Shown here: positions 27,283 to 60,442 of the stretch, in pieces
Layout: the number at the start of each line of letters is the position of its first letter
Numbering within the stretch: position 1 is the first letter of the stretch
Origin: an uncultured bacterium
GTDB taxonomy: Bacteria > Bacteroidota > Bacteroidia > Bacteroidales > Muribaculaceae
Length of the DNA: 64,000 bases
NCBI GenBank assembly: GCA_905214735.1
Contig: CAJMNI010000001.1
Location: forward strand, 27,504-91,503
Direction of reading: 5' to 3'
Made by a program: the position numbers and the translations under genes
Notes under the pieces: model-generated
What the model was told of the DNA's origin: nothing
The model's database searches: none
Seen by the model: only the letters and a program-made list of their open reading frames with translations

Positions 27283-30200
27283 TCAGTCGATTACGCTGAA
27301 TTCCACCCAGTTGCTGTAATATTTCGATCCGAGTTCCGATTCATGGACCACAGCGGCGCGATATGTCCCGACCTCCAGATCGTCGGTGGCGATATAGATG
27401 TCGGAATCTGCCGGCACACTCTTCACGCGTTCCCCGTCGGCACCGATAACAACCACCGTCAGCCCCTCCGGAGCTTTCCCGGCAAGTTTCAGGCTGATTC
27501 CCTCAATGGCGAGATGAGAGTCGGCGCTGAGAACAAGCTTGGCGATATCGTTCTTGGTGAACGTGAATTCCACCTCTTCCGAGACATTCCCGGCGAGATC
27601 GCGGGCATATCCCTTCACCTTGTGGCTTCCGTTGGCAAGATTGATTGCCGGGATGCTCGCATTGTAGACCGACACCGCGCTACCATGATCGTCAAGACCG
27701 TCGAGTTTCACCGGTTTGCCGTCGATTTCGAGGTATACGCCCTTGTTTTTGCCTACGCCGGGCACAAGGCCGACATTGTCGGTGGCCGTCAGGCTTACGA
27801 TGCCCCTGTCGTTGTCGTATGCAAACTCGAGGCCGGGCAGAATCTCGTCGCGTTCCGCAGCAGGATCGGCTTCAGAGTCTGCGGCTGCCAAAGGAAGTTC
27901 GGCATAACCCGCCGACGAGAGGAATTTCTCGCGGCTGAAGGCGCTCACATAGAGACGGACCATCTTGCCACCCTCAGCCGGTTCGGTAGAATCCATATAC
28001 TTCTCGAAATCTGCCGGAACAGGAATCTGCACCTTGAATTCACCGTTTTTCACATCGGCCTCTACCGATGTGGCATGAACGCTGCGGAAGTCGATATAGA
28101 AGGGGGAGCCGTCGCTATATTTGATATCGATTGAATCGAGGGGAAGAGCCATCTTGACGACAGCCTTGCCATTGTAGGAGGCGTCGAGACTTTTATCGGC
28201 CGCGAGCACCTTGCAGTTGAGCGTAAGCAGGTCGCCGGGCTTGCATTTCTTTGCCTCGCCAAGAGTCACCTCAATTTTTCTCGTGGCCACGGGCACACGG
28301 AGCGCCGGGTCGCCGATAAGGAGATAATTGAGTTCCGAAGGATTGTTGACGTTGCTCTTGGCGCGGCAGAAAACCTGGCCGACAGTTGTCGGTTCGGTTC
28401 TGGGTTTGGGCGAAACGGAGCTGCCGTTCTGATAATAGAGGAAGCGCATGAAGCTCTTGCTGAAATCGAGGTTCCAGTTCGACTGCACTGTGCGCGCCGC
28501 CATAATCGTGCCGATAAAAGCGCGCGGAGAGTCGATCACGCCGGTCTCGCCGATGCCGCGCCAGCCACGGTCGGGATAGGAAAGGTCGCAACCCGCCAGG
28601 AAAAGGAAGCCGAGATTGCGGTTGGTCATGTTGCGCAGCATTGTCGGCGTGGCAAAATCCTGTGATCCGCCGTAAGCCGCCGGACCGGAGTGACCATAAT
28701 ATACATTGAAAATCTTGCCAAGGTCGAGCTCGTCGAAATAGGTCTTCGAAGCCTCAGCTATATCATCATATTCGTCGTTGATGAGGGTATAGTGCATCGG
28801 GCGGCAACCTGCGGTGCGCGACTGGGCCTGCACCAAAAGCATCCTTGCCTGGTCTGCCATATCGTCGTGCAGACGTCCGTCGCCCGGACACCCTATCGAC
28901 AGTGTCTCGTTGGCAAGCCATTCAAAGGAATTTTCATCCATATAGTCGCGGATCTTGCTGACGGCCAGATCGGCCTCACGCTGCGACCTGACGCCGATAT
29001 TACCTATGCCGATTTCCACATTTTTGTTGGAAAGAGCAAAATTGTTGGCAATATAGTCTGTGCATGCTCCGTAATAGTCGAGGTCGGGCGATGCGGCATC
29101 GGTAAGAATCACGCCGGGCTGCTGATATGCGATCATGAAATCGGGACGCTCTGTGCCGAGCACATTGCGCACGTCGGCATATATCGGGCCGAAGAGAAGC
29201 ATGTTCTGCAAGGGGCGGTCCTGCTTCTGATAAAGCATTTTGGCAAAGGCGCGGTAAGCCATCGGGTCGGGCTTGCCGTGGGAGAACTCGTCGTAAAGCT
29301 GCGAGGCTGTCACGACCACCACGTTCATACCGTCGTTCTTGCGGTGAAGCTCGGCGATCTGCTCGGCCTGCTTCAGATATTCCGGCACGGTGACTATGGC
29401 AAAGTCAATACCTTGCCCTTTGAGGGCATGAAGATTGCTGTTTTCAACGACTTTATAATCCGCTCCGATCTGCTTCTGAGGCTTTGCCGGGTCGAAAGTA
29501 ATAAACGTATGGGTTTGATGGCCGTTGGCGAAATATGCCTTACCATCCTCCACATTGAGTTCGACAGGCGCACTGCAGTCGGTGATCTCGAGCACTTTCG
29601 CGCCCTCAGGCACAGCGATATAGCCGTCGGCGCCCGCAGCCACGGAATTGCTTTTCCATATAGCCACTGTCTCCTGCACGAAGTCAGATGTCATTTCAGC
29701 GTTGAACTTCCTGAAATAGTTCAGGATCCAATAATCCACGGCTGCGAAATCGCGCACCTTGAGATTGATCGGTTCGATCACTACCTTCACCTTTCCTTCG
29801 GCAGGAATCTGGCCGAAAGCATAGCTCGTCGACGAACTGAAGCCCGGCGAGTTGTTGTTGCGGTAAATATAGTCGTAATTCGCGCTTCCGTTGCCAAACC
29901 GGATATTGCTGTCGCTGCCGCCGGCTGCCAGATAGGCGCCGACCTCAAGCTTGGCATAGCCAGAAGTGTCGATGAATTTAAGTTCGAGCGGCCATTCATA
30001 GCGGGAAGCGGCCAGCAGGTCTTCTCCCCAGAAAGTCTGTCCTGTGGAAGTATTGTTCTGGCAAAGGTCCTTCTCATGATATGCATAGCTCGTGAGGTCG
30101 GTGCGCTGAGCGGCGGTTTCCGACGCTGTCACGGTGCTCTTCGACATTGTGAGGGGAGAAAGGGCATCAGTCAGGAAATAATAACCTTTATCGGTATATA

Positions 30201-30606
30201 TGTTCAGGTCGCTCCTGACAAATCTTACTTTGTCTACATTATATTCCAGCTGTTCGGGACCCTGAGCATAGAAAAAGAGCTTGCCGTTGCTGTGGATCAC
30301 CGGCACCTGCGGAGGATTATCCTCATAAAGGCGTTCGAAGCGGTTGGTGGTGAAGTCGCGGTTCATCATCAGACCACCTGACCCGACCACGCTGACAGCC
30401 TCCGGATTCGAGAAACCCATTGCAGAGAGCGTGGCATCGTCGATTTCATATATTCCCGATTCGCCGACGGTGATTTTCACCCATTTCCCTGTGGAAAGAA
30501 GTGAATTTTCAGCAAAAACATAATTGTAATAAGAGTTCTGAGCTCCAAAGGCCGAAGAGGCGCTGAGGCACACGGCGGTTGCGAGCAGGGTGAGAAATCT
30601 TTTCAT
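27283..30606 (-). CDS. porU: T9SS C-terminal signal peptidase PorU (peptidase C25, gingipain-like)
   Basis: 1107 aa. C25 His/Cys dyad contexts YYGHSGPAAYGG and LFLAGCDLSYPD. Start overlaps the upstream FAH gene stop (ATGA). Adjacent to porV. Confidence 0.7.
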   Translation of the reverse strand: MKRFLTLLATAVCLSASSAFGAQNSYYNYVFAENSLLSTGKWVKITVGESGIYEIDDATLSAMGFSNPEAVSVVGSGGLMMNRDFTTNRFERLYEDNPPQVPVIHSNGKLFFYAQGPEQLEYNVDKVRFVRSDLNIYTDKGYYFLTDALSPLTMSKSTVTASETAAQRTDLTSYAYHEKDLCQNNTSTGQTFWGEDLLAASRYEWPLELKFIDTSGYAKLEVGAYLAAGGSDSNIRFGNGSANYDYIYRNNNSPGFSSSTSYAFGQIPAEGKVKVVIEPINLKVRDFAAVDYWILNYFRKFNAEMTSDFVQETVAIWKSNSVAAGADGYIAVPEGAKVLEITDCSAPVELNVEDGKAYFANGHQTHTFITFDPAKPQKQIGADYKVVENSNLHALKGQGIDFAIVTVPEYLKQAEQIAELHRKNDGMNVVVVTASQLYDEFSHGKPDPMAYRAFAKMLYQKQDRPLQNMLLFGPIYADVRNVLGTERPDFMIAYQQPGVILTDAASPDLDYYGACTDYIANNFALSNKNVEIGIGNIGVRSQREADLAVSKIRDYMDENSFEWLANETLSIGCPGDGRLHDDMADQARMLLVQAQSRTAGCRPMHYTLINDEYDDIAEASKTYFDELDLGKIFNVYYGHSGPAAYGGSQDFATPTMLRNMTNRNLGFLFLAGCDLSYPDRGWRGIGETGVIDSPRAFIGTIMAARTVQSNWNLDFSKSFMRFLYYQNGSSVSPKPRTEPTTVGQVFCRAKSNVNNPSELNYLLIGDPALRVPVATRKIEVTLGEAKKCKPGDLLTLNCKVLAADKSLDASYNGKAVVKMALPLDSIDIKYSDGSPFYIDFRSVHATSVEADVKNGEFKVQIPVPADFEKYMDSTEPAEGGKMVRLYVSAFSREKFLSSAGYAELPLAAADSEADPAAERDEILPGLEFAYDNDRGIVSLTATDNVGLVPGVGKNKGVYLEIDGKPVKLDGLDDHGSAVSVYNASIPAINLANGSHKVKGYARDLAGNVSEEVEFTFTKNDIAKLVLSADSHLAIEGISLKLAGKAPEGLTVVVIGADGERVKSVPADSDIYIATDDLEVGTYRAAVVHESELGSKYYSNWVEFSVID

Positions 30607-31858: not shown

Positions 31859-34800
31859 TCATTGTCCGGTCACTGCGAGTTTCTTGGTCTTTGACGTGTA
31901 AGTTCCCTCGGGGCTCTCGACTGTGGCGCGGTAGAGATATATTCCTCTCGGCACTCTCGCACCCGACTTGTCGCAAAGATCCCAGCGGGCAGTCATGGTG
32001 CTGTTTATGTCGCTCTTGGCAGCCTGGTCGTTTTCCCAGATCTTGCGGCCGTTGAGGTCATAGACCGCTATGTTGCAGTTCATCTTGGTGTTCGGACGAT
32101 CGATTTCGAGGCGGAACACCACGCTCGTCGAGGCGGGATTGACGTCGGTCGAAAGATCGTAGATCACCGGGTCGACTGCCGCACCGACATTGAAGTCGAG
32201 GCTCTGCTTGGTAACGTTGTTGGCGTTGTCCCACACGGTGAACACCAGCGTATGCTTCCCGGCCGTCAGTCCGGTCATCGGGTAGGTTATGGTGCCTCCC
32301 CCCTCGGTCTCCGGATCAGACGTGTAGTAAGCGCTCACATTGTCAAAAATCTGCTTGCCATCGACGATCACCGACATCTTGTGGCCGATGCCTGTGTCGG
32401 AAAGATTGATGCCCGACGGATCCTGCACTTTGGCGAAAAACACCGGCGAGGAGTTGACAAGGCCGCCGTTCTCGAAATTCGGGTTGTTGAGATAGATATA
32501 ATCCACAACCGGACCCTCCTCGTCGGCGGCCGCATCTTCGTTGAAGCCATAGACATAAAGACGGTCGCAGGCTCCGTTGGCCTCGCGCCCCTTACCATCC
32601 CATGCATAGACCGTGATACGCGCCGGCGAATAGTTGTTCTCTATTTCGGGCGGCAGGGTGAGAGTGCCGGAGAAAAGACCGTCGACCACCTTGACGTTGA
32701 GCGATGTGAGCCGCGTCTTGCGGTCGTTGTAGGTCACCGACTTGCCGTTGTCGCCGTTGCCGTAGGTGGTGATCACTCGCTCGGCGTCGTAGAGAAGGAG
32801 ATTGGCCGTGCCGTTGAAGTCGGAGGCAAGCGAACCGTCGGGGTTGAGAATCCGACCTTCCACTTTGGGAGTGCCGAGCGCCTTCACCTCGGGATATACC
32901 ACCGCTCCGGGGAGCACCGATACGCCGTCGATCGTAGTTATTTCAGCGCTGTAATCGGGCGAAAGGACTCTGAGGGCGGGATCGCCGATGAAGGCGTAAC
33001 GAAGCTTGTTGGTGTCGTTGCCGGTGTCGTTCTTTCCCTCGATATAGACGTCGCCGAGGCGTTTGGCTTTTCCTTCGGCGTCGCGCTCGAAGTAATGGCG
33101 GGTAGTGCGGTCGTTGAGCGTTCCGTTCTGCGAGATGTAGACGGTTCGCGTGGCAGCCATCATGCCGATCACTCCTCCTTCAGGATTGAGGATAAGGTGC
33201 TCGGCGCCGCTCTCTTCAGGCGCGTCCCAGAAGGAGAAACCGCAGGTGGCGGCATACATGAACGTCAGGTTGCGGTTTGACATGTTGACGATGTCGTTCC
33301 ACTGCCAGAGATGCTCGTGGCCCCAGCCTGTCGGAGAGGCATGACCGATATAGTTGGTGAAGATCACTCCGTCGTTGTAGTTCTGGAGCATTCGCTCCGT
33401 GGCCTTCGGATAAGCCGGACCCACACTCGTCTGCTCGAGCTTGTAGCTGTCGAGATAGAGGCGGTCATAAAGGAAATTCGAACCGTTGCCGGCGTTGAGA
33501 AGATTGTTGTAGACCTTCTCCGACTGCGTGAAATGCACGGCGTTGTCGTTGTCGTCGGCGATAAGCATCACTTTGTTTCGCCATTCGCCATACTCGGGAT
33601 TCTTCACATAATTCTCGATCTTGGTGGCTACGTCGAGCGCCTCCGAAGCCGTCGTGACCGGAATGCGGCCTATTGGAATAGTGCATTTTGCCGAGGCGAG
33701 GTTCATGCGGCCGGGATCGACGTCGTCGAGCATGCCGATGAAGTCGTCGTTGGAATATGAGGAGGTTTCCGACAATCCCGTGGGTGACTGCCATATCGGT
33801 ACCGGAGTGTAGCTCAGGTTCTTGACCTCCAGCGACACCCCCTTGGGATCGAATGTCGGCTTGCCCATGATCAGACAGTAGGATATCTGGCGCTCCGACT
33901 CGCGGTCGCGCCACATCTTCAGCAGCTGGCGAAAAGCCGACACGTCGGCCGTACCGCCCGAAAATTCGTTGTAGATCTGCTGCGGAGTGAGGATCGCCAC
34001 CTTGAATCCGTCGACCTCTTCGTGAAGCTTCGCTATCCGCTTGGAGCCCTCCATATAATCTGTCTCGGTGATGATGAGCATGTCGGGCTCCTCCATGCCG
34101 TGGATGTTCTGGTTGGCAAGGAGGCTGCCGCGGGTGGCTGTGCCGGTGATCTGGTCGGGATTGAAGGCCACATATTCGCGATATCCGTCGCCCGGATTGT
34201 TGAATGTGGCTTTGTCGCCCGAAAGCTGATGGCTCACGAGCGTCGGCGCCGTGTGGTCGGTCACGTCCCAGATCTGCGTTGCAGAGGAGCAGCCGGAGAC
34301 AACCATTGAAGTCGGACTGTCGAAATTGCCGTAGAAATAGAGCTGGCCGTTGCGCAGGGCGAGCGAGCGCTCGTAGAAGACTTCGATATAGTCGAGGCGC
34401 GCCGTGAAAAGCGCTCCGGAATAAGAATAGTCGATTGTAAGATCAAGATGGTCGCCGGCATCCTCCACACTCTTGGAGGTGAGGCCCATCACGCAGTAAC
34501 TGTCGGCGTTCGACACCGAGGAGATGCGGTCGCTCGCCGTCGAGGGGAGCCTGGTGCCGTTGGCCGTGAATATCAGCGACGACTGGCCGTTGGTGGTCTT
34601 TGCGCCGAAACTTGTCACAAAAAATGCATTCCCGTCGACATTGTCGGGGAGATCGAATGAGAATTTCTGCGATTTAGTGGAGCGGAAATCCTCGCCGAGC
34701 AGATTGCGTCCGCTTTCGCCGGGGTGCTGCAGTTCGCGTTCATGCACGATGCGCTCCGTGAAGGTGGTTGCGGTCCTGACAGTAGTCCCGGTGGTGAGAG

Positions 34801-35257
34801 CCTGGGGCATATCTTCAGCAGCGATTTCGCGGTCGCTCACAAAATAGAGGCTCTTCTCGCAATAGGGGTTGATCACATGCTGATAGGGCACGCTCGATCC
34901 GCTCGATGCCGACCAGGTGAAATGGTCGGCGGCAAAAAACAGGATCCCTTTCGCTGTGCGCACCGACGGCAGGAGCGGAAGGTCGTTGGGGATGCGTTCG
35001 GTGAGCCCTTCCGGAAGCATGCGGCCCCCCATGCCGTAGACATGGACCTTCGAGGGGTCGGAAAAGCCCATGGCGCGGAGATCGGCGTCGGTGATCAGAT
35101 GCATGCCCGACTTTGTCACCGACACGCTCATCCAGCGCCCCGTCGACAATACCGATGCCTCAGGGTAATGATCCGTCGGAAGAGCCGAGGCCGTGATGGC
35201 CGACACTCCAAGCAGACCTGTAAACCAATATCTTAACCTTGTTATGAATGATGTCAT
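31859..35257 (-). CDS. Gingipain-like C25 cysteine peptidase paralogous to PorU, with cargo-type T9SS CTD
   Basis: 1132 aa. N-terminal region aligns with PorU (LSTGRWMSVSVTKSG...GFSDPSKVHVYGMGG). C25 dyad contexts NYIGHASPTGWG and YAATCGFSFWD. C-terminus ...VYDLNGRKI...GIYLYRATVESPEGTYTSKTKKLAVTGQ looks like a T9SS CTD. Confidence 0.65.
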   Translation of the reverse strand: MTSFITRLRYWFTGLLGVSAITASALPTDHYPEASVLSTGRWMSVSVTKSGMHLITDADLRAMGFSDPSKVHVYGMGGRMLPEGLTERIPNDLPLLPSVRTAKGILFFAADHFTWSASSGSSVPYQHVINPYCEKSLYFVSDREIAAEDMPQALTTGTTVRTATTFTERIVHERELQHPGESGRNLLGEDFRSTKSQKFSFDLPDNVDGNAFFVTSFGAKTTNGQSSLIFTANGTRLPSTASDRISSVSNADSYCVMGLTSKSVEDAGDHLDLTIDYSYSGALFTARLDYIEVFYERSLALRNGQLYFYGNFDSPTSMVVSGCSSATQIWDVTDHTAPTLVSHQLSGDKATFNNPGDGYREYVAFNPDQITGTATRGSLLANQNIHGMEEPDMLIITETDYMEGSKRIAKLHEEVDGFKVAILTPQQIYNEFSGGTADVSAFRQLLKMWRDRESERQISYCLIMGKPTFDPKGVSLEVKNLSYTPVPIWQSPTGLSETSSYSNDDFIGMLDDVDPGRMNLASAKCTIPIGRIPVTTASEALDVATKIENYVKNPEYGEWRNKVMLIADDNDNAVHFTQSEKVYNNLLNAGNGSNFLYDRLYLDSYKLEQTSVGPAYPKATERMLQNYNDGVIFTNYIGHASPTGWGHEHLWQWNDIVNMSNRNLTFMYAATCGFSFWDAPEESGAEHLILNPEGGVIGMMAATRTVYISQNGTLNDRTTRHYFERDAEGKAKRLGDVYIEGKNDTGNDTNKLRYAFIGDPALRVLSPDYSAEITTIDGVSVLPGAVVYPEVKALGTPKVEGRILNPDGSLASDFNGTANLLLYDAERVITTYGNGDNGKSVTYNDRKTRLTSLNVKVVDGLFSGTLTLPPEIENNYSPARITVYAWDGKGREANGACDRLYVYGFNEDAAADEEGPVVDYIYLNNPNFENGGLVNSSPVFFAKVQDPSGINLSDTGIGHKMSVIVDGKQIFDNVSAYYTSDPETEGGGTITYPMTGLTAGKHTLVFTVWDNANNVTKQSLDFNVGAAVDPVIYDLSTDVNPASTSVVFRLEIDRPNTKMNCNIAVYDLNGRKIWENDQAAKSDINSTMTARWDLCDKSGARVPRGIYLYRATVESPEGTYTSKTKKLAVTGQ

Positions 35258-35427: not shown

Positions 35428-36189
35428 TTACCTCGTCGGTTTCTCGGCAAGCACGCGCTCCCATTCAGCCCTCGAGCCGTGAAACACGTTGAGGTCTACC
35501 TCGCCCCGGATGCCGGCTACTTTCCCGTGGTGATAATATTGCCAGAAGGTCCAGTCGTTGTTGGCGGAATTGTCGTCGGTGAAACTGCATATCCAGAGAG
35601 GGAAACCTCTGAAATTGCGGAAAAGATATTTCTCATAGCCGGCTCTGTTGGAATAGAACATCACGCGTCTCCCCTTCAGGTTGAGATAGTCGACCATCTT
35701 CTGGAGATTCTCGGCCACCTCTTCGGGAGTGTAACCTTCGGGATTCCCTTCGGCCTCGACGTCGATCACCATGCCAAGTTCGAGCGGGCGCGCCCCTACC
35801 GACCGCATGAGATTGACGGCCTGCTTCACTCCGTCGACATCGAAGCGGAAGAAATGATAGGCTCCGACTTTCATTCCGGCATGACGTGCCTTCTGATAGT
35901 TGAGCACAAAGTTTTCATCGCGGAAGTTCTCTCCTTCCGATGCCTTAATGAAGATGAATTCTATACCGTCGTCAGCCGCGGCGTCGAGGTTCATCATCCC
36001 GTTGTGGGCCGACACGTCGATCCCTTTCACGGGGAAGCGTTCGGGGTCAACATAGGGGGGCGTGGTGATATATTCCCGATAGGCCCACCATATCGCCCCG
36101 ACAAGGAGCAGCGAAACGAGCAGAAACCAGCCCGCCACCACCACATCCTTCCGCGGACGCTTCAGCAATTTGTCGAGTTTCAATAACAT
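35428..36189 (-). CDS. Glycoside hydrolase family 25 muramidase (lysozyme) with N-terminal membrane anchor
   Basis: GIDVSAHNG...DDGIEFIFIKASEG...GAYHFF motifs of GH25. N-terminal TM segment. Overlaps the upstream membrane-protein gene by 10 nt. Confidence 0.85.
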   Translation of the reverse strand: MLLKLDKLLKRPRKDVVVAGWFLLVSLLLVGAIWWAYREYITTPPYVDPERFPVKGIDVSAHNGMMNLDAAADDGIEFIFIKASEGENFRDENFVLNYQKARHAGMKVGAYHFFRFDVDGVKQAVNLMRSVGARPLELGMVIDVEAEGNPEGYTPEEVAENLQKMVDYLNLKGRRVMFYSNRAGYEKYLFRNFRGFPLWICSFTDDNSANNDWTFWQYYHHGKVAGIRGEVDLNVFHGSRAEWERVLAEKPTR

Positions 36190-38006
36190 GGCAGGCTCCT
36201 TTCTCCCGATTCCGGCCGATATACTATCATATAGCGCATCGTGTCGACAGGCGCGTATCCGAGTTCGGCGAGCGTCGACAGAATCGCTCCGGTCTTCTTT
36301 TCATTATGGAAGTAGTTGGAAAATTCCCCTCGGCCATGCATCTGGTCGTCGCCCGGTCGGCTGAAATCGCCTGCCGGAGCCGCCAACCTCATAACGAGCA
36401 CCGGAGCCTTGCGCAACTTTCGGCTGAGTTGCAGGCGCAGCTGATCGGCCGACAAAAGTTCGGGGCTCTGGTTGCCGATAGCGGGAAGCGTGCCGGTGAG
36501 GTAATGGAGCATCGGCGCCATTCCGGAGATGAACACAGGCTCTCCTTCCCGGGCCACCGAGTCGACCTCAGCCACCATCTCACCGAGAGCACGAGCCCTC
36601 TGAGGCGAGGTGTAGACGCCACGGCCCCCGTCGACGCCAACAGCACCGCGGCATTCCCACAGAGGCGTGCTGTCGAAATAAACCCCTTCGGAAGCAGCTC
36701 GGCCAAATGCCGCAGCTCCGATCAGAAGAGCAATGGCTGTCACGAGATTGCGCGACGCCGGGAGTGTGGCTCCCGCGAATTTATGCAAAAATCGGGTGTA
36801 AAAAAGAAACGCCGGAACCGAGGCAAGCCACATTGCCTGCGTGCCGTTGTTGATAATAGCGCCGTCGCTCCCGAGCGGAAAGATCAGGATCACGGCCAGA
36901 CCGGCGACTGCCGTCGCCCTGATGCGCGGTGTTGAACGCCAGATTGCCCCGACACAGCCGATAATGAAAAGAGCCCCGAGAAAATAGGTGAAGGTCGAGC
37001 TTCCCGACCGGAAGGCATATTTCACCACGACAACTACTGCCGCTGCCACCCACACCACATTGAGAGCCCGCCGCAGCGAACGGCTTTTTACCAGCCGGCC
37101 CGTTATCGCTGCCAGAGCAAGCACTCCGGCTATCGCTATGCCGCAGCGGAACATATTCATATATGCCCTCAGCTGGACGGTTATCAGATTGACCGGGCCG
37201 TGACTCACTTCAGCCGATTGCGATGTGACCATGTTCATCAGATCAGCAAGATGATGAAAGAAAATGGTGTTATGCCCGAGAAGCAGCATCAGCAGGAAAA
37301 CGGCGAGGATTCCGGTAAGCCATCCTCCGAGATACCCTAACATCAGCATCGAAAGCTGAAGCCCCCGGCGGCGCATTCCCCGGCATCCTTGCCATGCCAG
37401 CAACGGAATTATGAGAATATAGAGAATGCCGAGGAGATTCGGCATCCTTGAAAAGACGTTGATGCCGAGCACTATTCCGGAGGCGATTATCATCCGGTCG
37501 CAATGACCGGGGCGAGCGGTATATGACGTTCTTCCGTCGTCAGGCAACAGAGGGGACAATCCTTTGAGCATCAACCGGAGGCCTACGCAGGTGAGAAGGG
37601 CCGACAGCTGATCGTAAGAAAAAGTGAGCGGCATGTCGAGCTGCTCAGCGAGAATCACTACTATTGCCGCCACAACGATCGGGCGCATGCGCCGATCGGG
37701 GAAAAGCGACGCAACGGTCAGCGCCGTCAGCGTGTTGACAATCAAGCCGACGAGCCGCATCCCGAACATACCGGGGAAGAGCAGCATCAACGCGCCGCCG
37801 ACCACGTCGGTGAGATAATGCATGAAGCCATATTCCACAGCTTCCGGATGAGTGAAAATATTGGCATACGAGGCGAGATAAAAACCGGAATCGCATAATT
37901 CCACGCCGAAAAAGAGCGGCGGCAACTGCAACGCCACGCATATTCCGGCAAGCAGAAGCATATACTTCCAGTCAATTCTCCCCGTTTTATTATCTGACAA
38001 CTTCAT
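36180..38006 (-). CDS. Large polytopic membrane protein (608 aa), possibly GT-C-like glycosyltransferase; function unknown
   Basis: Twelve or more hydrophobic segments plus a C-terminal soluble domain. A TAATTTTG -7 element lies 4 nt upstream of its ATG on the minus strand (38011-38018). Co-transcribed with the GH25 gene. Confidence 0.55.
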   Translation of the reverse strand: MKLSDNKTGRIDWKYMLLLAGICVALQLPPLFFGVELCDSGFYLASYANIFTHPEAVEYGFMHYLTDVVGGALMLLFPGMFGMRLVGLIVNTLTALTVASLFPDRRMRPIVVAAIVVILAEQLDMPLTFSYDQLSALLTCVGLRLMLKGLSPLLPDDGRTSYTARPGHCDRMIIASGIVLGINVFSRMPNLLGILYILIIPLLAWQGCRGMRRRGLQLSMLMLGYLGGWLTGILAVFLLMLLLGHNTIFFHHLADLMNMVTSQSAEVSHGPVNLITVQLRAYMNMFRCGIAIAGVLALAAITGRLVKSRSLRRALNVVWVAAAVVVVVKYAFRSGSSTFTYFLGALFIIGCVGAIWRSTPRIRATAVAGLAVILIFPLGSDGAIINNGTQAMWLASVPAFLFYTRFLHKFAGATLPASRNLVTAIALLIGAAAFGRAASEGVYFDSTPLWECRGAVGVDGGRGVYTSPQRARALGEMVAEVDSVAREGEPVFISGMAPMLHYLTGTLPAIGNQSPELLSADQLRLQLSRKLRKAPVLVMRLAAPAGDFSRPGDDQMHGRGEFSNYFHNEKKTGAILSTLAELGYAPVDTMRYMIVYRPESGERSLPCY

Positions 38007-38053
38007 ATCACAAAATTAAGCAATTTCCATCTTATATTAGACTTTCGCGCCAT

Positions 38054-38068
38054 TTTTTTGTAATTTTG
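38054..38068 (+). promoter_or_regulatory. Promoter -7 element TTTTTGTAATTTTG for the membrane-protein array (ATG at 38079)
   Basis: Identical to the elements at 18094 and 42694. Only 10 nt from the ATG, which implies a near-leaderless mRNA. Confidence 0.55.
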
Positions 38069-38078
38069 CATTCCTGTT

Positions 38079-39575
38079 ATGAGCAAGATTCTTTCCATCC
38101 GGTCTATTGTCACGCAGGCCTATATCTGGCTTGCGCTTCCGCTGTTAGTATTCTTCGCGGCCTGGCTGAGATGGTATGTCGCGCTCCCCTCTCTCGCTCT
38201 TCTTCTCTTCACCTTCGGGTATATGCTGCGGCGCAGAAAAGATTCCTCTTTTTTCACATCTTCCCATTTTGCCGACGTCAAGGTCAACCGCAAGCTCATA
38301 ATCATAGCCACACTACTGCTTATATACACGATTTATTGTGGAGTCGGAGGTTTTTTCTGGCAGGCCACTTCCGACCATCATTTCCGTTCGGCCGTATTTT
38401 TCGACCTCGTAAAACGCCCGTGGCCCGTGACTTATCCTCCGCTTGCCGACGGCGAGCCAAGAATGCTCTGCTACTACATAGGCTATTGGCTCCCTGCAGC
38501 GGTAATGGGCAAACTTTTCAGCGGATACGTGATGCCCGGCAACTTCTTCCTCGTCCTTTATACGGCATGGGGCCTTTTCATCGCCATCTCGTTGATAATA
38601 AGCTTCACCGGAGGACGGCCGCGCTATCTGATTCTGCTCATTTTCCTATTTTTCGGCGGCTGGGACCTTTTCACATCGCTAATATACGCCACCGATCAGC
38701 AACGCGTCTCTCTCAACACTTTCCTCATATCGGGTATCAACTATGATTCCACCATCTATCACGGCACCGCAAATCTAAGCATACTGACCGCCCAAGTCTT
38801 CAACCAGGGAATCCCCGCCCTGATCGGCTGCCTGCTCGTAAGGTTCCACTGGCAAAAACCGCAGTTCCTTCTCCTTCCCTTTTCCCTTCTCTTTTTTATC
38901 GCGCCGCTCCCTTGCGTGGGTCTGGCAGTGATCCTTATTCCGCACATGCTCGGCAACCTGAAAGAATCGTCCTCTTGGCAAAACTTCGCCTCAATGGGGC
39001 TTTGCATAGTGCCCGCGCTATATTTCATGCAGAACAGGAACGCAGGAACCATTCTGTGGCACATCTCCGACGGACTGGGGCCCGCGGTTCTCGAAAGCGG
39101 AATTGTCTGGCTTTGTCTCGGTCTCGGCATATTCCTTCCCTTCATCTGGCCGCAAGTGAAACGCAACGTCCCCTTCTGGACCCTGGTTGCCTTCGCCTTT
39201 TTCGCCCCCTTCCTCCAGATGGGACAAGCCCAGGATTTTGGTCTTCGCGCCGCTACTCCCCTCTCAATCTATCTTTTACTCCTCGTCACTGACGCAGCAT
39301 GCCGGGTCAGAAGCTGGAAAACAGTCAGAGGAAAACTATTTGCCGTCACGTTGTTCCTGGCATCTTTCGCGCCGGCCGGCATTTATTACTTTATCGCTTA
39401 CCATGCTGTGGCCGACTGCATCATCGGAGGTGCAAAAGCCATGCGCGACCGTGGCCAGGGCAAACTCGCCAATCCCGAAGAGAATGTGTTCTACAACAAC
39501 TTCATTGCCACCGGCGACGGCTTCTTCTCGCGCCATCTGATGCGCCATCCGGTTAATAAACATGATTTGCCATGA
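38079..39575 (+). CDS. Polytopic membrane protein, paralog A of tandem triplet (498 aa); uncharacterised family
   Basis: About 12 TM segments. Conserved blocks shared with copies B and C: QAYIWLALPLL, PWPxxYPPxDG, YYxGFWLPAA, NQGIPAxLG, and C-terminal FYNNF..GFF..LMRHP. Confidence 0.7.
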   Translation: MSKILSIRSIVTQAYIWLALPLLVFFAAWLRWYVALPSLALLLFTFGYMLRRRKDSSFFTSSHFADVKVNRKLIIIATLLLIYTIYCGVGGFFWQATSDHHFRSAVFFDLVKRPWPVTYPPLADGEPRMLCYYIGYWLPAAVMGKLFSGYVMPGNFFLVLYTAWGLFIAISLIISFTGGRPRYLILLIFLFFGGWDLFTSLIYATDQQRVSLNTFLISGINYDSTIYHGTANLSILTAQVFNQGIPALIGCLLVRFHWQKPQFLLLPFSLLFFIAPLPCVGLAVILIPHMLGNLKESSSWQNFASMGLCIVPALYFMQNRNAGTILWHISDGLGPAVLESGIVWLCLGLGIFLPFIWPQVKRNVPFWTLVAFAFFAPFLQMGQAQDFGLRAATPLSIYLLLLVTDAACRVRSWKTVRGKLFAVTLFLASFAPAGIYYFIAYHAVADCIIGGAKAMRDRGQGKLANPEENVFYNNFIATGDGFFSRHLMRHPVNKHDLP

Positions 39576-41139
39576 GCATGACTGTCACAACTGAATCAAA
39601 ACTTATTCCCATGAAATGGATCGTGACGCTGGCCTACGTCTGGCTCGCGATTCCGGTCATACTGTTTCTGATCTTCTGGGTGAACCTCACTGTCAACGCC
39701 CTGCTGGCTTTAATGATCATATACGTGGGAGCATCCGCCTTCATCCGCAGACAAAAAGAAAAAAAACATCTGCCATATCCCTGCCTGCTCAAGATTTTTC
39801 ACCAGCTCTGAAACTTGACCCAACACTGGTCTTTACCGGTGCGACCCTACTCTTTCTTGTGATATACATGGGAATCGGAGGACTGATGACACAGGAATAT
39901 AACGATCAAGTATTCCGCAACGCAATGCTATACGAAGTGACCAACCGCGACTGGCCTATAATCTATCCCCCAATCGACGGCAACCCATGCTTCCTTAGCT
40001 ATTACATGGGATTCTGGCTCCCTGCCGCTGCCGTGGCAAAAATTTTCGGCGGCAATATGCTTGTAGCCGAGTCAGTCACTATCTTTTACGCCTGGACCGG
40101 ACTATTTCTATTCATAGCCTTCATCTTCAGTTATGTCGGCGAAAGGCGCAGGCTGCTGGCTCTTTTAGTGATTCTCATGTTCGCCGCATTCGACTATGTG
40201 GCCGGCGCCATTTTCACATATCGGAATTACCCTGATATCATCTCATTCATCGGAGGCAACCATGACAACGCCACAACCTACTATGCGCTTCCGAACATCG
40301 CAGTGGCACTGGGCCAAATCTACAATCAGGCGATACCGGCCTTCTTAGGCTGCATGCTGCTCTATTATCAGCGCAACTCCTTCCGCTATTTCTTTCTGAC
40401 GTTCGCACTGGTGATGTTCTTCTCGCCTCTTCAGTGCGTAGGAATTTTCCCGGTTTGCGCGGTGTGGGGCATCCGCAATTTCCGCAACACCCTCTCTGCA
40501 GCCAATATTTTAGGAATTCTACTTTGCTTTCTCTTTGCAGCCTATTTCATGGCCAACAATCAAGGTTCCATGCGCACTTACGCCACCGAAGGCGACCAAA
40601 TAGCCATTATTGCCGAAAAAGGTGCATTTTGGGTCACCTTTTCCGTAGCAATATACCTTCCTTTCCTATGGAAAAGCGTGAAGCGCGACTGGGTGTTTTG
40701 GCTGCTGCTCGCCATTTCGCTGGCGGCTCCACTCATGTCGCTCCACGGCCTCGGCGACCTTGGATGGAGAGCTCCGACAGGCCTTTCGGTTTATTTGATG
40801 GCGAAAATTGCAAAAAAGGTTGTGGGCATAAGACGGTGGACCGCGCCCCGCAACGCCTGCTTCGCTGTGACTCTCTGCCTCTGCTCACTCACAACAGCAG
40901 GAATTTATTTTTACAGAGGTTATCTTGAAGTGACGGAGGTTATCATCAAAGGGCGCTCTCCGCGCGTAGACTGGCTCAACGGCCATCTTGCCGATCCCGA
41001 TTACAATCAATGGTTCAACAATTTTATGTCGACCCGCAACGGTTTTTTCTATAAATACATTATGCGACGACCGGACGCCGCAATCAGGTATAATCACAAC
41101 AACACATCGAAGCATAATGATGCAGACCGCAATCAATAA
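39572..41139 (+). pseudogene. Paralog B of the membrane-protein triplet, interrupted by a -1 frameshift within an A8 tract (39759-39766)
   Basis: N-terminal 79-aa ORF (39572-39811) and the large ORF 39616-41139 sit in different frames. The two join at GAAAAAAAAC. Nine or six A residues would give an intact ~520-aa protein aligning with A and C throughout. The ATG overlaps paralog A's stop (ATGA). Confidence 0.75.
39759..39766 (+). repeat. Homopolymeric A8 tract at the frameshift site
   Basis: Read directly: acaaaaagAAAAAAAAcatc. Confidence 0.9.
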
Positions 41140-41143
41140 TAAT

Positions 41144-42664
41144 ATGGAAAAATCGATTACCATGAAGTCAATCGTGATCCAGGCATACGTCTGGCTTGCG
41201 CTTCCGCTTCTGATATTCCTCGCATTCTGGGTTATTCCCTGGATATCAGTGCCTGCCATAACGGCAATAATTCTGATTCTTGCTAAGATTTTCCGGGAGA
41301 AATCCGACTCTCAGCTGTATAAATCTCGCGGGTTCGCGGCCTCCTTGCGCTTCGACCGCAACATCTGGTGGATTATTCTCGTAATTCTTCTCGTCTCTAT
41401 CTATTGCGGCATCGGCGGCCTATATGCTCAAAACTACACTGACGCCTTCGGACGCAACGCCATTTTCTACGACCTCGTCAAACTCCCCTGGCCCACTGAG
41501 TATTCCCCAATTGATGGAAACCAGAGAACATTGGTTTATTATTTCGGGTTCTGGCTTCCCGCCGCCGGGATTGCGAAAATTTGCGGACACTCCATATTTG
41601 TCGGCGAGATGGTTCAATTAGCTTATGCGGTCTGGGGATTATGGCTTATCACCGCTTTCCTCTTCAGTTACTGCCGAGGCCGACGCAGATGGCTCGCTCT
41701 TTTGCTCCTCTTTTTCTTCGCCGGCTGGGAAGTGGTCGAGACCCACTTTATATGGCATCATAACATCGGCGATTACTCTCTCAAAGACTTTTTCCTGTAC
41801 ACGTCGGACACCGACAACTTCTTTGTCCTAAATACGATGCACGCAATCCTGATCATGATCTACAATCAAGGGATCGCCGCCTTTTTGGGAATCATTCTCC
41901 TTTACTACCAACGTCGTTGCTTCAAATCTTACATCTTCACGTTTTCACTTTTGATGATTTTCGCTCCGATTCCTGCTTTCGGCATTCTGCCAATATGCAT
42001 TGTCTGGGGATTGATGCATTTCAGGCAGTCTCTTTCATTTCCCAATATACTGGGAATCATGATTTGCATGCTGATAGCATCTTTCTATATGGGCAGTCCT
42101 GTGGGAGCTGACGTCAATCCGATAGTCTGGTCTGACAATATTATTTTCATGGTCAAATGCTGCGTTCTGTTTATTCTGACCTGCATCGCCGTCTACCTCC
42201 CCTTTATTTGGCGCAGTGTAAAAAAGAACTGTCTCTTCTGGGCCCTCCTTGCAATTTCTTGCGCAGCTCCCTTTTTCACTCTGACAGATCGTGTGGATTT
42301 CGGCTGGAGGATTCCCACCGGACTGGCGGTTTTCATGCTCTTTACCGTGACAAAAGCAGCCGTCAATGTTAAAAATTGGCACACTCCGCGCAATGTATGT
42401 TTCGCCATTGTTCTCTCCATTGGGGCGTTATCACCAATCATAAATTATTGCCGACGTTCTTATTATGAAGTCAAGGAAGTCGTCATAGAGGGTAGATCCC
42501 CACGAAACCACTATTATGAAGGTATGCTCTCGTCAAAAGATTTCGACGCGCCTTTAAATTCACCTTCCCCCGAGCTCGAACCTTTTCTACACAGACTTAT
42601 CTATACCACATATATTTGTGAAAAGGAGACTTTCTTCAATAAATATCTTATGCGTCACCGATAG
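41144..42664 (+). CDS. Polytopic membrane protein, paralog C of tandem triplet (~506 aa)
   Basis: Start MEKSITMKSIV aligns with the A start MSKILSIRSIV. Shares the same conserved blocks as A and B. Markedly lower GC than surrounding genes. Confidence 0.7.
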   Translation: MEKSITMKSIVIQAYVWLALPLLIFLAFWVIPWISVPAITAIILILAKIFREKSDSQLYKSRGFAASLRFDRNIWWIILVILLVSIYCGIGGLYAQNYTDAFGRNAIFYDLVKLPWPTEYSPIDGNQRTLVYYFGFWLPAAGIAKICGHSIFVGEMVQLAYAVWGLWLITAFLFSYCRGRRRWLALLLLFFFAGWEVVETHFIWHHNIGDYSLKDFFLYTSDTDNFFVLNTMHAILIMIYNQGIAAFLGIILLYYQRRCFKSYIFTFSLLMIFAPIPAFGILPICIVWGLMHFRQSLSFPNILGIMICMLIASFYMGSPVGADVNPIVWSDNIIFMVKCCVLFILTCIAVYLPFIWRSVKKNCLFWALLAISCAAPFFTLTDRVDFGWRIPTGLAVFMLFTVTKAAVNVKNWHTPRNVCFAIVLSIGALSPIINYCRRSYYEVKEVVIEGRSPRNHYYEGMLSSKDFDAPLNSPSPELEPFLHRLIYTTYICEKETFFNKYLMRHR

Positions 42665-42693
42665 GTAAAATTTATTTTTTGATGATTGGTTGA

Positions 42694-42708
42694 ATTTTTG
42701 TAATTTTG
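42694..42708 (+). promoter_or_regulatory. Promoter -7 element TTTTTGTAATTTTG upstream of hpt
   Basis: Third identical copy of the element. 48 nt upstream of the hpt ATG. Confidence 0.55.
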
Positions 42709-44102: not shown

Positions 44103-46097
44103 ATGATGAAAAATCAAGGATTTAACGCTTCGGCTCTTTTGTTGGCGCTTCTGCTGCTCCTGCTCCCGCTCGCCGGCTGCAAGACCCCGAAGCTCGCCGA
44201 CGCCAACGCCGCCTATGACCGCGGCGAATATTTCGACGCCTCCAAAATCTACCGCGCCGTCTACAATAAGCTCAACCCGCGCGAAGACCGCGAGCTGCGC
44301 GGCGAGGTGGCTTATCAGCTCGCCACGTGCTATCGCAAGCTCAACATGGCAGCCCGCGCATCCGCGGCCTATCAGAACGCGATCCGCTATGAATATCCCG
44401 ACTCAATGGCATTTTTCTATCTCGGCCGCTCGCTGCAGATGGAGGGGAAATATCAGCCGGCGATCGAAGCTTACACCACTTTTCTCGACTATCGCGCCGA
44501 CGACCAGCTCGCCAAGGAGGGGATAAGGGGCTGCCAGCAGGCCATCAGGGCCAAAAAGGAGAAAAAGAGCCGCTACAAAGTGGCGCAGGCCAAGCTTTTC
44601 AATTCCAGAAGGGCCGACTTCGCCCCGATGTATCTCGACAAGACGCTCAACACCATCTATTTCACATCTTCGACTGAAAAAGCGCGCGGCACCAACCACT
44701 CCGAGATCACCGGTACCAAACGAAGCGACATATTTTATTCCGAAAAAGACGAGAAAGGGAACTGGAAACGTCCCGAACCGGCCGAAGGAGAGCTCAACTC
44801 CGACTTCGATGAGGGTATCACGGCATTCTCCCCCGACGGCCAGACGATGTATCTCACCATGGCGCGCCGCTCCGAATCGGCCAACACCAGCGTGGAGATC
44901 TACACCTCCCGCCGCTCCGACGCCACCTGGAGCGCACCCCAGAAATTTGAAATCACCGCCGACACCCTCTCCGCCGTAGGCCACCCCGCCGTCTCTCCCG
45001 ACGGAACTTATCTCTATTTTTCCTCCGACATGCCAGGCGGCTTCGGAGGAAAAGACATCTGGCGCATCAACCTCAAGGAGCGCGCCGGAAGCCTCGAGAA
45101 CCTCGGCCCGCAGATCAACACCTCGGGCGACGAAATGTTCCCATACATGCGCACCGACTCGCTGATGTATTTCTCATCCGACGGCCACCCGGGCTTCGGA
45201 GGCCTCGACCTTTTCACCGCCCGGCTAAACTCCACAGGCGACCGCTGGAGCGTCAACAACCTCGGCCTGCCCCTCAACAGCCAGGGCGATGACTTCGGCA
45301 TAACTTTCGGCGAAGGGGAATCCGGGTTCTTCAGTTCAAACCGCGGCGACGCCAGAGGTTACGACCATATCTACAGCTTTATCCTCCCCGAAATTAAGGT
45401 CACGATCTCCGGCTATGTGCTCGACAAAGACGAGGAGCCTGTGCCCAATGCCGTGATCCGCATCGTCGGCGACGACGGTTCCAACCAGAAGGAGGTGGCA
45501 AAAGACGATGGCTCCTTCAAGTTCAAGCTCGAACGGGGCGTGAAATATGTGATGCAGGCCGGCGCCAAAGGTTATCTCAACGTCAAGCAGGAGTTTGAGA
45601 GCGACATGGAGGAGGAGGATGCCGATTATGGGGTCGACTTCATCCTCGCCGCCATCTATAAGCCGCAGGTGGTGGAGAATATTTTCTACGACTTCGACCG
45701 CGCTTCGCTCCGTCCCGAATCTAAAGCAGCCCTCGACGAAATGGCGCAGATGCTTCGCGACAACCCCAACGTCACCATCGAAATGGGTTCGCACACCGAC
45801 CGCGTCGGAACAGAGGAATACAACATCGGCCTCTCCGACCGCCGCGCCAAGAGCGTGGTCGACTATCTGATCGCCGCCGGAATATCTCCCGACCGACTCA
45901 CCTGGAAAGGCTACGGCGAGACTGTGCCCAAGACCGTCACCAAACGCATCAACCGAGAATATCCGCAATTCCCCGAGGGAACAGTGCTCAACGAGGAATT
46001 CATCAACACCCTGTCGGAAGAAGACAAAGAGGCAGCCGACCAGGTGAACCGCCGCACTGAATTCCAAGTCACTTCGATCGAATACGACTTTTTCTGA
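44103..46097 (+). CDS. Outer-membrane lipoprotein with TPR, TolB-like beta-propeller repeats and C-terminal OmpA domain
   Basis: Lipobox LLPLAGC. TPR-like N-terminus. Repeated DG..LYF.S.R blades. C-terminal OmpA-like motif block (FDFDRASLRPES...NPNVTIEMGSHTD...GLSDRRAKSV). Confidence 0.8.
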   Translation: MMKNQGFNASALLLALLLLLLPLAGCKTPKLADANAAYDRGEYFDASKIYRAVYNKLNPREDRELRGEVAYQLATCYRKLNMAARASAAYQNAIRYEYPDSMAFFYLGRSLQMEGKYQPAIEAYTTFLDYRADDQLAKEGIRGCQQAIRAKKEKKSRYKVAQAKLFNSRRADFAPMYLDKTLNTIYFTSSTEKARGTNHSEITGTKRSDIFYSEKDEKGNWKRPEPAEGELNSDFDEGITAFSPDGQTMYLTMARRSESANTSVEIYTSRRSDATWSAPQKFEITADTLSAVGHPAVSPDGTYLYFSSDMPGGFGGKDIWRINLKERAGSLENLGPQINTSGDEMFPYMRTDSLMYFSSDGHPGFGGLDLFTARLNSTGDRWSVNNLGLPLNSQGDDFGITFGEGESGFFSSNRGDARGYDHIYSFILPEIKVTISGYVLDKDEEPVPNAVIRIVGDDGSNQKEVAKDDGSFKFKLERGVKYVMQAGAKGYLNVKQEFESDMEEEDADYGVDFILAAIYKPQVVENIFYDFDRASLRPESKAALDEMAQMLRDNPNVTIEMGSHTDRVGTEEYNIGLSDRRAKSVVDYLIAAGISPDRLTWKGYGETVPKTVTKRINREYPQFPEGTVLNEEFINTLSEEDKEAADQVNRRTEFQVTSIEYDFF

Positions 46098-60200: not shown

Positions 60201-60442
60201 ATGAAGGCGAGACAGCACTCGGTCCCGATGTGGCTGTAAACGTCCCGACAGGTGTAGCTGAGATCGACGCCGAATATGAGCTCAAGGTCTGCGGCATGAG
60301 CGTCAGCGCCCTCTCGCCGATCGACGTCTACACGGTCGACGGCACATGCGTGGCTGCCGGCGTGAAGTCGTTCATCGCCCCCGCTCCCGGCCTCTACATC
60401 CTGAAAGCCGACAAAGCATCGGTGAAAGTTATACTGAAATAA
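57293..60442 (+). CDS. T9SS cargo protein, paralog 3 (Fn3 / choice-of-anchor-J / CTD)
   Basis: Signal peptide. QDEDGGLVIYNSYSSSSGNSARLASP motif. CTD ...APGLYILKADKASVKVILK. 33-nt spacer from paralog 2. Confidence 0.75.
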   Translation: MKRHLNKVALASAILAFSAAALPAAEPLFSYGFSEDKATGQTEFDQTFAVFDANSDGTQWKYNYYTTGSTPYYYAQCYNYSTTAYDDYMTTKTAVSLEQGKVYCISYDLWCDSSSSLGTVKAGYCLTPDPDKSSFIDSGDTGSFINKYSGDAPAQVKKYFTVDQTGDYYFTFHVSGGNAAIDNIVIKEGGSATTPAAVTGLAVVPDPDLGYKATVSFTLPSACITGGQLASVSKVEIYRNDVLVSTLANQTPGAKVTFKDVEGDNGRPEGDVVYKVIVYNGEEASEPVIAPSVYVGPRCPNAVTDLSVEPGDGNSYKLYWKAPVRYTDGTSIPSSAAIVYDIYRVVDGEPALITDETSSFPSEYKNYNTYTTFTDTYSADKRQMVKYQVSAKSGDKVSEAVETTEFGVGPVSLPFADSFAGAVLSSDWSNQALVGSKVWEAQKSDSHPYAQPQDEDGGLVIYNSYSSSSGNSARLASPEILNAEGSNPTFEFWMNHGSSGNDKLYVEVQADGGEWKKIEGSETTVENATTGWMKYSYPIAGMVEGSSKYRVALTSLSAYGYDIVVDNIRIYDAPAYDLQISAGEVADAVMAGKEAGYSAVVINNGKAVAAADYQVEVYVDNQLETTLESVDIPSGESRSFEYSREFTAAETGVHDILFKVVYAADLVADNNEASAACEVSASAKDGVKEINGYYSETQKAVILNWTSPTDSEGFVPTDSMEDFKGCHNAVEATADAEAVEADYHNWKVYDLDGIDSSMMGSNYSVSTSVWQIFDSSSSWAPTGSNGSRLMIVCSPKTNSGAAPTDKSNDLLVSPAGFVNAFDAASFTITVSARSASGSNMAVAYSTEETDPAPESFVDTKVISVPGSTSFDSYSFEVPGNARYIAIRHCTPATEYGAALYIDKIEAKSNFEPALGFHVYENGKRVNDAMLTATEFVIPVEEAGDEPLSVRAREAENDTLTRTFNISTVYDEGETALGPDVAVNVPTGVAEIDAEYELKVCGMSVSALSPIDVYTVDGTCVAAGVKSFIAPAPGLYILKADKASVKVILK

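Follow-up and report, generated by a model that had tools for sequence, protein, structure and literature searches.

What does a tandem array of polytopic membrane proteins without a named family contribute to a bacterial envelope, and why would its copy number differ between strains? The question is raised by a locus in a 64-kb stretch (64,000 nucleotides of contig CAJMNI010000001.1, hereafter the window) from an uncultured member of the Muribaculaceae, a family that is dominant in the gut yet poorly characterised. Three consecutive paralogous genes, copies A, B and C, diverge there from a gene pair encoding a 608-residue membrane protein and a GH25 muramidase-family protein. With a probability of about 0.6, we read the locus as a strain-variable periplasmic glycan-decoration module with four inner-membrane glycosyltransferases of the GT-C fold. 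This proposal is built on paralogy, fold, family size, Gtr-type neighbours elsewhere, strain haplotypes, a recombination breakpoint and a frameshift, all of which were observed here. Periplasmic glycosylation by GT-C enzymes that use lipid-phosphate sugars is known. What is new is the sequence family and its arrangement, a tandem, recombining and allele-swapping array accompanied by a second GT-C, a GH25 protein and often PorU, the sortase of the secretion system of type IX (T9SS). The central features are as follows, in window coordinates.

35428-36189, minus strand: GH25 protein of 253 amino acids with one N-terminal transmembrane segment (PF01183, E 4e-35)
36180-38006, minus strand: 608-residue polytopic protein with predicted GT-C fold, taken from the open reading frame (ORF) map
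38011-38068, both strands: divergent promoter region with a paired -7 motif, TAATTTTG
38079-39575, plus strand: copy A, 498 amino acids, predicted member of a small GT-C fold family that has no database model
39572-39811, plus strand: 5' fragment of copy B, 79 codons followed by a premature TGA, a separate 79-residue gene in the source assembly
39759-39766, plus strand: A8 homopolymer in copy B, A9 in other contigs of the species
39767-41139, plus strand: remainder of copy B, shifted by -1 from the frame of its start and inside ORF 39616-41139
41144-42664, plus strand: copy C, 506 amino acids (515 from ATG 41117), the hypervariable position of the array

Copies A, B (with its frame mended) and C could be aligned end to end, from the first helix to a C-terminal FF..LMR, and shared the blocks PWP..Y, YYxG[FY]WLPAA and NQ[GA]I. 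A first-pass annotation, made from the sequence alone, had described this alignability and these conserved blocks, together with the ATGA overlap of the first two copies, and the alignment and the gene map bear it out. The copy A stop and the copy B ATG overlap by 4 nt (39572-39575), and copy B is followed by copy C after a gap of 4 nt, or with a 23-nt overlap if the alternative ATG at 41117 is used (the copy C frame is open from 40988 in the ORF map). The overlap and the short gap indicate one operon. Copy B had also been drawn as a single gene at 39572-41139. This assignment does not hold, as the span of 1568 nt is not a multiple of three and the gene is frameshifted. G+C content falls along the array from 52.7% in copy A to 49.3% in copy B and 46.3% in copy C, with a window value of 56.0%; at third codon positions the fractions are 0.635, 0.575 and 0.554, and those of neighbouring genes 0.65–0.75. 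The lower composition reported earlier for the array is therefore real, while the contrast given for it (45–48% against ~60%) was overstated. The low values of copies B and C fit a foreign or long-separate history.

To what fold do these proteins belong? An AlphaFold2 model of copy A computed on an 11-sequence alignment (pLDDT 83.7, pTM 0.89) contained ~13 membrane-length helices; the first-pass annotation had given 12 transmembrane segments. The transmembrane core of the small copies superposed on solved GT-C enzymes, the top structural neighbours being ALG12, ALG9 and AftA, and on this model all three small copies are predicted to have the GT-C fold. Identity to the nearest solved structures (ALG12, ALG9, AftA and ArnT) was only 8–11%, with no profile or sequence match, and the small family differs from all four by an added helical hairpin, which lies N-terminal to the helix running into the catalytic loop. 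Invariant across the 11 aligned members were G88, G91, Q95, D99, R103, W115-P116, Y119, Y132-Y133, W137-L138-P139, Q243, P276, P278, D386 and R390, with N104 and D109 nearly so. D99 and R103 are present in copies A, B and C, and copy B has Glu at position 109. The loop that follows the third helix (residues 71–86) carries D99, R103 and D109. Given that a basic RRRKD loop precedes this helix, the positive-inside rule places the D99 loop in the periplasm. On the model, the D99/R103/D109 loop would thus face the compartment in which the catalytic acidic residues of GT-C enzymes are found.

A polytopic build of ~500 amino acids, conserved Arg and Asp residues in loops and an envelope-gene neighbourhood would also suit Wzy-type polymerases, WaaL-type ligases or Wzx flippases, and the first-pass annotation had proposed a polymerase, ligase or glycosyltransferase set. 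Among the matches in the structural comparison of the small copies there was no fold of an O-antigen ligase, a polymerase, a SEDS protein or a flippase, and neither Wzy_C nor the O-antigen ligase or Polysacc_synt families were matched in Pfam at E≤1. Wzy, WaaL and Wzx identities are effectively refuted on fold, and we give them almost no chance; of the functions proposed, the glycosyltransferase is the one that stands.

In sequence, copies A, B and C gave no meaningful match to Pfam or NCBIfam at E≤1 (DltX, at E 0.43 for copy B, falls far below its cutoff) or to PHROGs, and a profile of the 11 family members had zero matches to PDB sequences at E≤10. The modelled GT-C families, including YfhO, PMT_2, GT87 and the ArnT-like proteins, were not significantly matched in Pfam or NCBIfam by any of the three copies, and no Pfam domain lay on any homolog found. 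The copies had earlier been described as lacking a named family, which agrees with these searches. The same annotation had weighed homology to a well-characterised family as the alternative; no profile match to such a family emerged, and copy number proved variable. Several characterised GT-C enzymes likewise have no Pfam domain, among them Bacillus subtilis YkoS, Lactococcus lactis CsdB and Listeria GltB (PMC8035078). Judged by the Pfam, NCBIfam, PHROGs and PDB searches, the small copies are a new sequence family, to which YkoS, CsdB or GltB may belong.

This family is large. A word-index search had returned 10 clusters, which suggested that the family was very rare; this view was overturned by an exhaustive profile search, in which the family comprised 3,660 clusters at 50% identity and 1,946 of these reached E≤1e-30. 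Among species-representative genomes, relatives were located in Bacteroidales, Christensenellaceae, Lachnospiraceae, Erysipelotrichaceae, Chloroflexota, Verrucomicrobia, Alphaproteobacteria, Spirochaetes, Actinobacteria and others. Among ten diverse members, the source name was "hypothetical protein" for 2 clusters and none was given for the rest, and the homologs found in a plasmid search were all "hypothetical protein". The fold and the probable biochemical role proposed here apply to a large family that spans phyla and has no Pfam, NCBIfam or PDB entry. In 185,579 species-representative genomes, from which the species of the window is absent, the best match had 34% identity, although the pattern searched with does match copy A of the window itself, and the nearest labelled relatives were Muribaculaceae metagenome-assembled genomes (MAGs). 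Some long members carry additional domains. P0073 (1156 amino acids) joins a GT87 (PimE-like GT-C) domain at 273–531 to a domain of the new family at 636–1156; P0030, P0044 and P0055 have extra unannotated C-terminal domains, and P0155 has MORN repeats.

Which pathway might supply such enzymes? A Pfam scan of 149 immediate neighbour genes of family members, drawn from 80 genome loci (L numbers below), returned Glycos_transf_2 (12 genes) and GtrA_DPMS_TM (10 genes) as the commonest families. With local profiles, a GtrB-like family 2 glycosyltransferase (GT2) was found within 5 kb of a family member in 21/80 loci, GtrA in 12/80 and both in 7/80. The neighbouring GT2 proteins are ~310 amino acids long with two C-terminal transmembrane helices, the architecture of polyprenyl-phosphate sugar synthases. 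In the Bacteroides loci L026, L036 and L048 the genes occur in the order gtrA, family member, gtrA, GT2, and a Sphingobium plasmid (AP027335.1, L095) carries the same trio of family member, GT2 and GtrA. Neighbours of the GT2 and GtrA kinds, as identified by these profiles, are the context by which periplasmic glycosylation of the three-component or multi-component type is defined.

Further genes were seen at these loci. In L026, L036, L048 and L023 (Bacteroides and Mediterranea MAGs, positions ~7950-12950), the family gene lies between two GtrA-like genes, and the GtrB-like GT2 follows downstream within ~0.6 kb in L026 and L048 and at ~3.5 kb in L036. Upstream of the family gene, L036 and L023 encode a ~525-residue protein resembling FAD/NAD amine oxidases, an oxidoreductase that might modify the lipid-linked sugar; L026 has at this place a 426-residue protein with no Pfam match. 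On L095, several further ORFs around the family member, the GT2 and the GtrA genes, at 4043-5563, 9248-10798 and 11331-12914, encode "hypothetical" proteins of 500–530 amino acids, a membrane-protein size, without a match to either GT-C profile.

In three-component systems, the undecaprenyl-phosphate sugar made by a GT2 is exported by a small flippase, after which a GT-C passes the sugar on to an envelope polymer that is already finished (PMC8035078, PMC11127046). We propose a comparable scheme for the window. In the cytoplasm, undecaprenyl phosphate would receive a sugar from a GtrB-like GT2 encoded elsewhere in the genome, and a GtrA-like flippase would bring the lipid-linked sugar to the periplasmic face. 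Each GT-C would then transfer the sugar to an envelope glycan or glycoconjugate, with catalysis by the invariant acidic residues that the small family (D99) and the 608-residue protein (D39) carry in their first periplasmic loop. The participating enzymes would be the 608-residue protein with its C-terminal periplasmic domain, co-transcribed with the membrane-anchored GH25, and, from the divergent operon, three ~500-residue paralogous GT-Cs of a different family, each paralog adding a different residue or linkage. Unequal recombination between paralogs would change copy number, the last position would be exchanged for old divergent alleles, and copy B would be switched off in the window strain by a one-base change in its poly-A run. 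We infer the donor, the acceptor, periplasmic activity and any antigenic consequence from these comparisons.

GT-C enzymes might instead act as PMT-like protein O-glycosyltransferases, with lipid-phosphate sugars as direct donors for the modification of proteins that are periplasmic or secreted, and large T9SS cargo proteins are encoded near the array. Pfam searches gave no PMT or PMT_2 match, no MIR domain was found, and the fold alone does not indicate the acceptor. We regard PMT-like activity as quite unlikely.

For the decoration module that we favour, the closest parallels are GtrA/GtrB/GtrC of Shigella and Salmonella and CsbB/GtcA/YfhO and related systems of Gram-positive bacteria (PMC8035078). 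These also use a polytopic GT-C with an acidic external-loop motif; members of the small family adjoin GtrB-like GT2 and GtrA genes in other genomes; and the array is strain-variable and possibly switchable, like serotype-converting gtrC. The differences are that three to seven paralogs stand in tandem where Gtr-type systems have one gtrC, that the array is partnered with a second GT-C and a GH25, and that it is not prophage-borne, its flanks being housekeeping and T9SS genes. No phage homolog was found in 50,697 phage records searched by tblastn with copy A and with a Firmicutes member of the family.

Two other systems bear comparison. The GT136 pentofuranose side-chain system of Citrobacter O antigens is likewise a new GT-C family that acts in the periplasm on a finished glycan with an undecaprenyl-phosphate sugar, and it indicates that GT-C families of such kind are still being discovered (PMC11127046). 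GT136 has a C-terminal carbohydrate-binding module and is partnered with a PPPRS synthase and a MATE flippase (PMC11127046), whereas the small family, compared by description, has no extra domain and GtrB- and GtrA-type partners. Mycobacterial and corynebacterial Aft, Emb, Mpt and PimE enzymes provide a precedent for several GT-C paralogs per organism working on one envelope glycan, and the GT87 fusion in P0073 recalls PimE. Those enzymes are essential, mostly dispersed and fixed in number, whereas the genes here are tandem, variable and partly inactivated.

How variable is the array within the species? Haplotypes were compared among contigs with an identical copy A and the same synteny: PorU-related gene, FAA hydrolase, Rex, PorU, GH25 and 608-residue protein on one side of the array, and hpt, adk, PorE, GSCFA and gltX on the other. 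The window carries A, B (A8) and C; L001-L006 carry four genes, A, B (A9), C3 and C4; and L088-L092 carry A, B (A9) and C5. The window and L088 are 98–100% identical except at 41400-42700, where identity falls to 49–66%. Copy C of the window is ~100% identical to C3 and C5 up to ~41450 and to C4 thereafter. This switch from C3 to C4 identity marks copy C as the product of an unequal crossover between C3 and C4, or of the reciprocal event. Seven tandem paralogs occupy the same synteny in a sister species (L007, from a fat sand rat gut metagenome), and more distant Muribaculaceae MAGs have one or two.

These alleles are not recent duplicates. Paralogs A, B and C share 32–40% identity. Between C alleles, synonymous divergence (dS) is 0.94–1.96, with C3/C4 the closest pair at 0.94, and the ratio of nonsynonymous to synonymous divergence (dN/dS) is 0.14–0.23; the L007 pair r7_6/r7_7 has a dN/dS of 0.31. 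As judged from these divergences, the C alleles are old and functional, and were maintained or imported. The recent duplication suggested by the first-pass annotation is contradicted by these values. Copy number, which it proposed to compare across relatives, does vary (3 or 4 within the species, 7 in the sister species), and its description of a diversifying surface-glycan module fits well with this range and with the replacement of the last gene by divergent alleles. The haplotypes suggest that the array is probably a hotspot of within-species surface-glycan variation in Muribaculaceae. The sequence shows three mechanisms of variation, namely unequal recombination, the replacement of alleles and a frameshift in a homopolymer. 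Strains or serotypes could be marked by these alleles, which are also candidates for variation in phage receptors or immune epitopes. Outside the array, the hpt-adk spacer has intergenic single-base indels at 43377 and 43404 relative to L088, in a region of 99–100% identity.

The homopolymer concerns copy B, whose frame from ATG 39572 ends at TGA 39811, the rest lying in the -1 frame (ORF 39616-41139). Adding one A to the A8 run at 39759-39766 yields a copy B of 522 amino acids that aligns in full length with its paralogs. In 11/11 other contigs of the species checked, the run is A9 and copy B is intact at 520 amino acids. A8 was recorded only in ENA ERZ1309915 NODE_94 (coverage 19x), an exact match to the window and its source, so A8 has no independent confirmation.

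Three origins are conceivable for A8: a gene phased off, a pseudogene that has become fixed, or one error of assembly. We hold the odds to be even that it reflects an assembly error or a fixed pseudogenising mutation and no reversible switch. Its occurrence in one assembly, with A9 in every other contig, favours such an account, as does the habit of Bacteroidales, which usually vary surface genes through invertible promoters rather than homopolymers. On the other side, the window differs from L088 by four indels in ~10.7 kb outside copy C, of which the A run is the sole coding frameshift, so the assembly is not error-prone. The part of copy B 3' of the run has no other defect and almost matches the unbroken allele. 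Finally, a run inside a glycosyltransferase gene is a classic place for a contingency tract, and the locus resembles the contingency loci of Neisseria (lgt), Campylobacter and Helicobacter, in which a homopolymer lies in a glycosyltransferase ORF and a one-base length difference between strains flips the frame. It differs from them in having one off state in one assembly, a short tract (A8/A9) and a comparison made between strain sequences, not within a switching population. Read in the 0 frame, the run is GAA AAA AAA and contains the slippery heptamer A_AAA_AAA. Because a -1 shift is what the remainder requires, transcriptional or ribosomal slippage could restore some full-length copy B, which is speculation.

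The fourth glycosyltransferase of the proposed module is the 608-residue protein. Its predicted fold is GT-C: the transmembrane core can be superposed on enzymes of that fold, and the first helix is followed by an acidic residue, in agreement with the GT-C-like character noted at first pass. C38, D39, G41, F42 and Y43 are invariant just after this helix. A C-terminal alpha/beta domain at about residues 440–608 is probably periplasmic. The protein gave no meaningful match in Pfam, NCBIfam or PHROGs, and profile-profile comparison with the small family (hhalign) returned a probability of 0.7%, indicating that the two are not the same sequence family; its own family is rare and lineage-restricted. 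A 21-nt in-frame indel near 37982, flanked by the direct repeat CGTTTTATTA, distinguishes 608- and 615-residue forms between strains; the repeat suggests that the 5' end of the gene has undergone slippage or recombination.

The GH25 gene starts within the 608-residue gene, overlapping its stop by 10 nt, and this overlap supports the pairing of the two proposed earlier. Full coverage of PF01183 (profile positions 1–180 of 180), similarity to PHROG endolysin families (E 2e-37), a transmembrane segment at residues 12–37 and intact GIDVS and D-V-E motifs identify the product, as far as sequence profiles allow, as a membrane-anchored muramidase-family protein, which is also how it had first been annotated. 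The combination of GH25, 608-residue protein and small GT-C is kept in Muribaculaceae-type MAGs: it recurs in L007, L008, L009, L012 and L013, where the genes diverge, and in L011 and L019, where they are co-directional in the order 608-residue gene, GH25, small GT-C. L015 has a 608-residue homolog and small GT-C fragments, with no GH25 in the stretch examined.

Several points weigh against a glycan-decoration module. Searches of Pfam, NCBIfam, PDB and PHROGs gave no sequence-level tie to a characterised GT-C, and a Foldseek comparison with viral predicted structures (BFVD) returned nothing below E 0.1 and no GtrC-like match, a result that we treated as uninformative. In a further departure from Gtr-type systems, no GtrA or GtrB-like ORF occurs in the window or in L001-L019, the Muribaculaceae-type loci, so that the donor pathway is assumed and its genes are placed elsewhere by inference. 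Known Gtr-type systems, moreover, give no part to a GH25 protein. Finally, the A8 state, seen in one assembly, may reflect an assembly error or a dead gene.

Does the T9SS neighbourhood point to another function? The relevant genes are listed below.

26015-27241, minus strand: PorV, T9SS outer-membrane shuttle (PF19572, E 1.2e-65)
27283-30606, minus strand: PorU-related C25 paralog (PF01364, E 1e-44; NF033707 362 bits against a cutoff of 420)
31859-35257, minus strand: PorU, T9SS sortase (NF033707 926 bits against a cutoff of 420)
44103-46097, plus strand: PorE, peptidoglycan-binding T9SS component (NF052230 931 bits against a cutoff of 600)

Pfam and NCBIfam thus identified PorV, the PorU-related gene, PorU and PorE, and the first-pass placement of the block beside a porU/porV T9SS island is correct. 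The gene adjoining PorV is the PorU-related one; the true PorU (31859-35257) lies 1.2 kb beyond it, with FAA-hydrolase-like and Rex genes between. This two-gene C25 pair is kept in L007, L012, L013 and L019. PorU adjoins the module in the window and in five species-level loci (L007, L011, L012, L013 and L019) despite rearrangements, and was not seen in the flanks examined for L008 and L009, which carry the module. The linkage between PorU and the module may be functional, or else inherited synteny.

In Porphyromonas gingivalis, PorU attaches cargo to a linker glycan borne on lipopolysaccharide (LPS), the tether being a pentasaccharide with a labile pentose branch (PMC13086638). One reading is that the GT-Cs are no optional decorators but a dedicated assembly line, which would act in sequence, in the manner of ALG3/9/12 or the mycobacterial Aft/Emb/Mpt enzymes, and build a single periplasmic glycan, namely the one (or the linker) that receives T9SS cargo from PorU. 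Chains are built sequentially by the top structural neighbours ALG12, ALG9 and AftA, genes for PorE and for T9SS cargo lie nearby, and the recurrent adjacency to PorU and the P. gingivalis precedent speak in its favour. A copy number of 3 or 4 within 98–100% identical flanks, with one copy frameshifted, is hard to square with an obligatory pathway. The family is also common in Firmicutes and other phyla without T9SS, and L008 and L009 lack PorU in the flanks examined. Furthermore, GT-C enzymes sit in the inner membrane, while PorU acts at the outer membrane. We consider such an assembly line rather unlikely.

A related proposal, which we also hold to be unlikely, is that in Muribaculaceae the combination of GH25, large GT-C and variable small GT-Cs beside PorU builds or varies the glycolipid or linker used for cargo attachment. 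If this were true, swapping, duplicating or switching off GT-C genes would give all secreted proteins of the surface a new glycan coat specific to the strain. That the module is repeatedly linked to PorU provides a lead on how T9SS cargo-anchoring glycans arise outside Porphyromonas.

Alternatively, the GH25 could remodel peptidoglycan for trans-envelope T9SS assembly, its linkage to the GT-Cs being incidental. The gene lies between PorU and the peptidoglycan-binding PorE, its motifs are intact, its anchor would leave it facing the periplasm, and other secretion machines possess dedicated lytic enzymes. The 10-nt overlap with the 608-residue gene argues for a tie to the GT-Cs, as does the occurrence of GH25, 608-residue protein and small GT-Cs together in seven loci, some without PorU in the flanks examined. 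Such a dedicated T9SS role for the GH25 is in our view improbable.

Large, putatively secreted proteins are encoded on both sides of the locus. A 2588-residue subtilase-like protein with a T9SS C-terminal sorting domain is found at 7652-15418, and three paralogous proteins of ~1100 residues with fn3, MAM, CARDB and choice-of-anchor J domains are found at 50255-53629, 53918-57259 and 57293-60442. Judged by their domains, these four are likely a T9SS cargo cluster around the locus.

The 608-residue gene and copy A diverge from a spacer of 72 nt. A scan for sigma-70 promoters and intrinsic terminators, which does not cover Bacteroidetes promoters, gave nothing above shuffled expectation. The window contains just 27 sites of the form TAnnTTTG, the -7 motif of Bacteroidetes promoters, when both strands are counted. 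Two of these face outward from the spacer: TAATTTTG occupies 38061-38068 of the plus strand, where 10 nt separate it from the start codon of copy A at 38079, and 38018 to 38011 of the minus strand, where the start codon of the 608-residue gene at 38006 follows after 4 nt. The near-leaderless promoter proposed at first pass for the array is thus supported, with a twin for the divergent operon. The mirrored pair is kept in L001 and in L007, whose proteins are only 55–60% identical.

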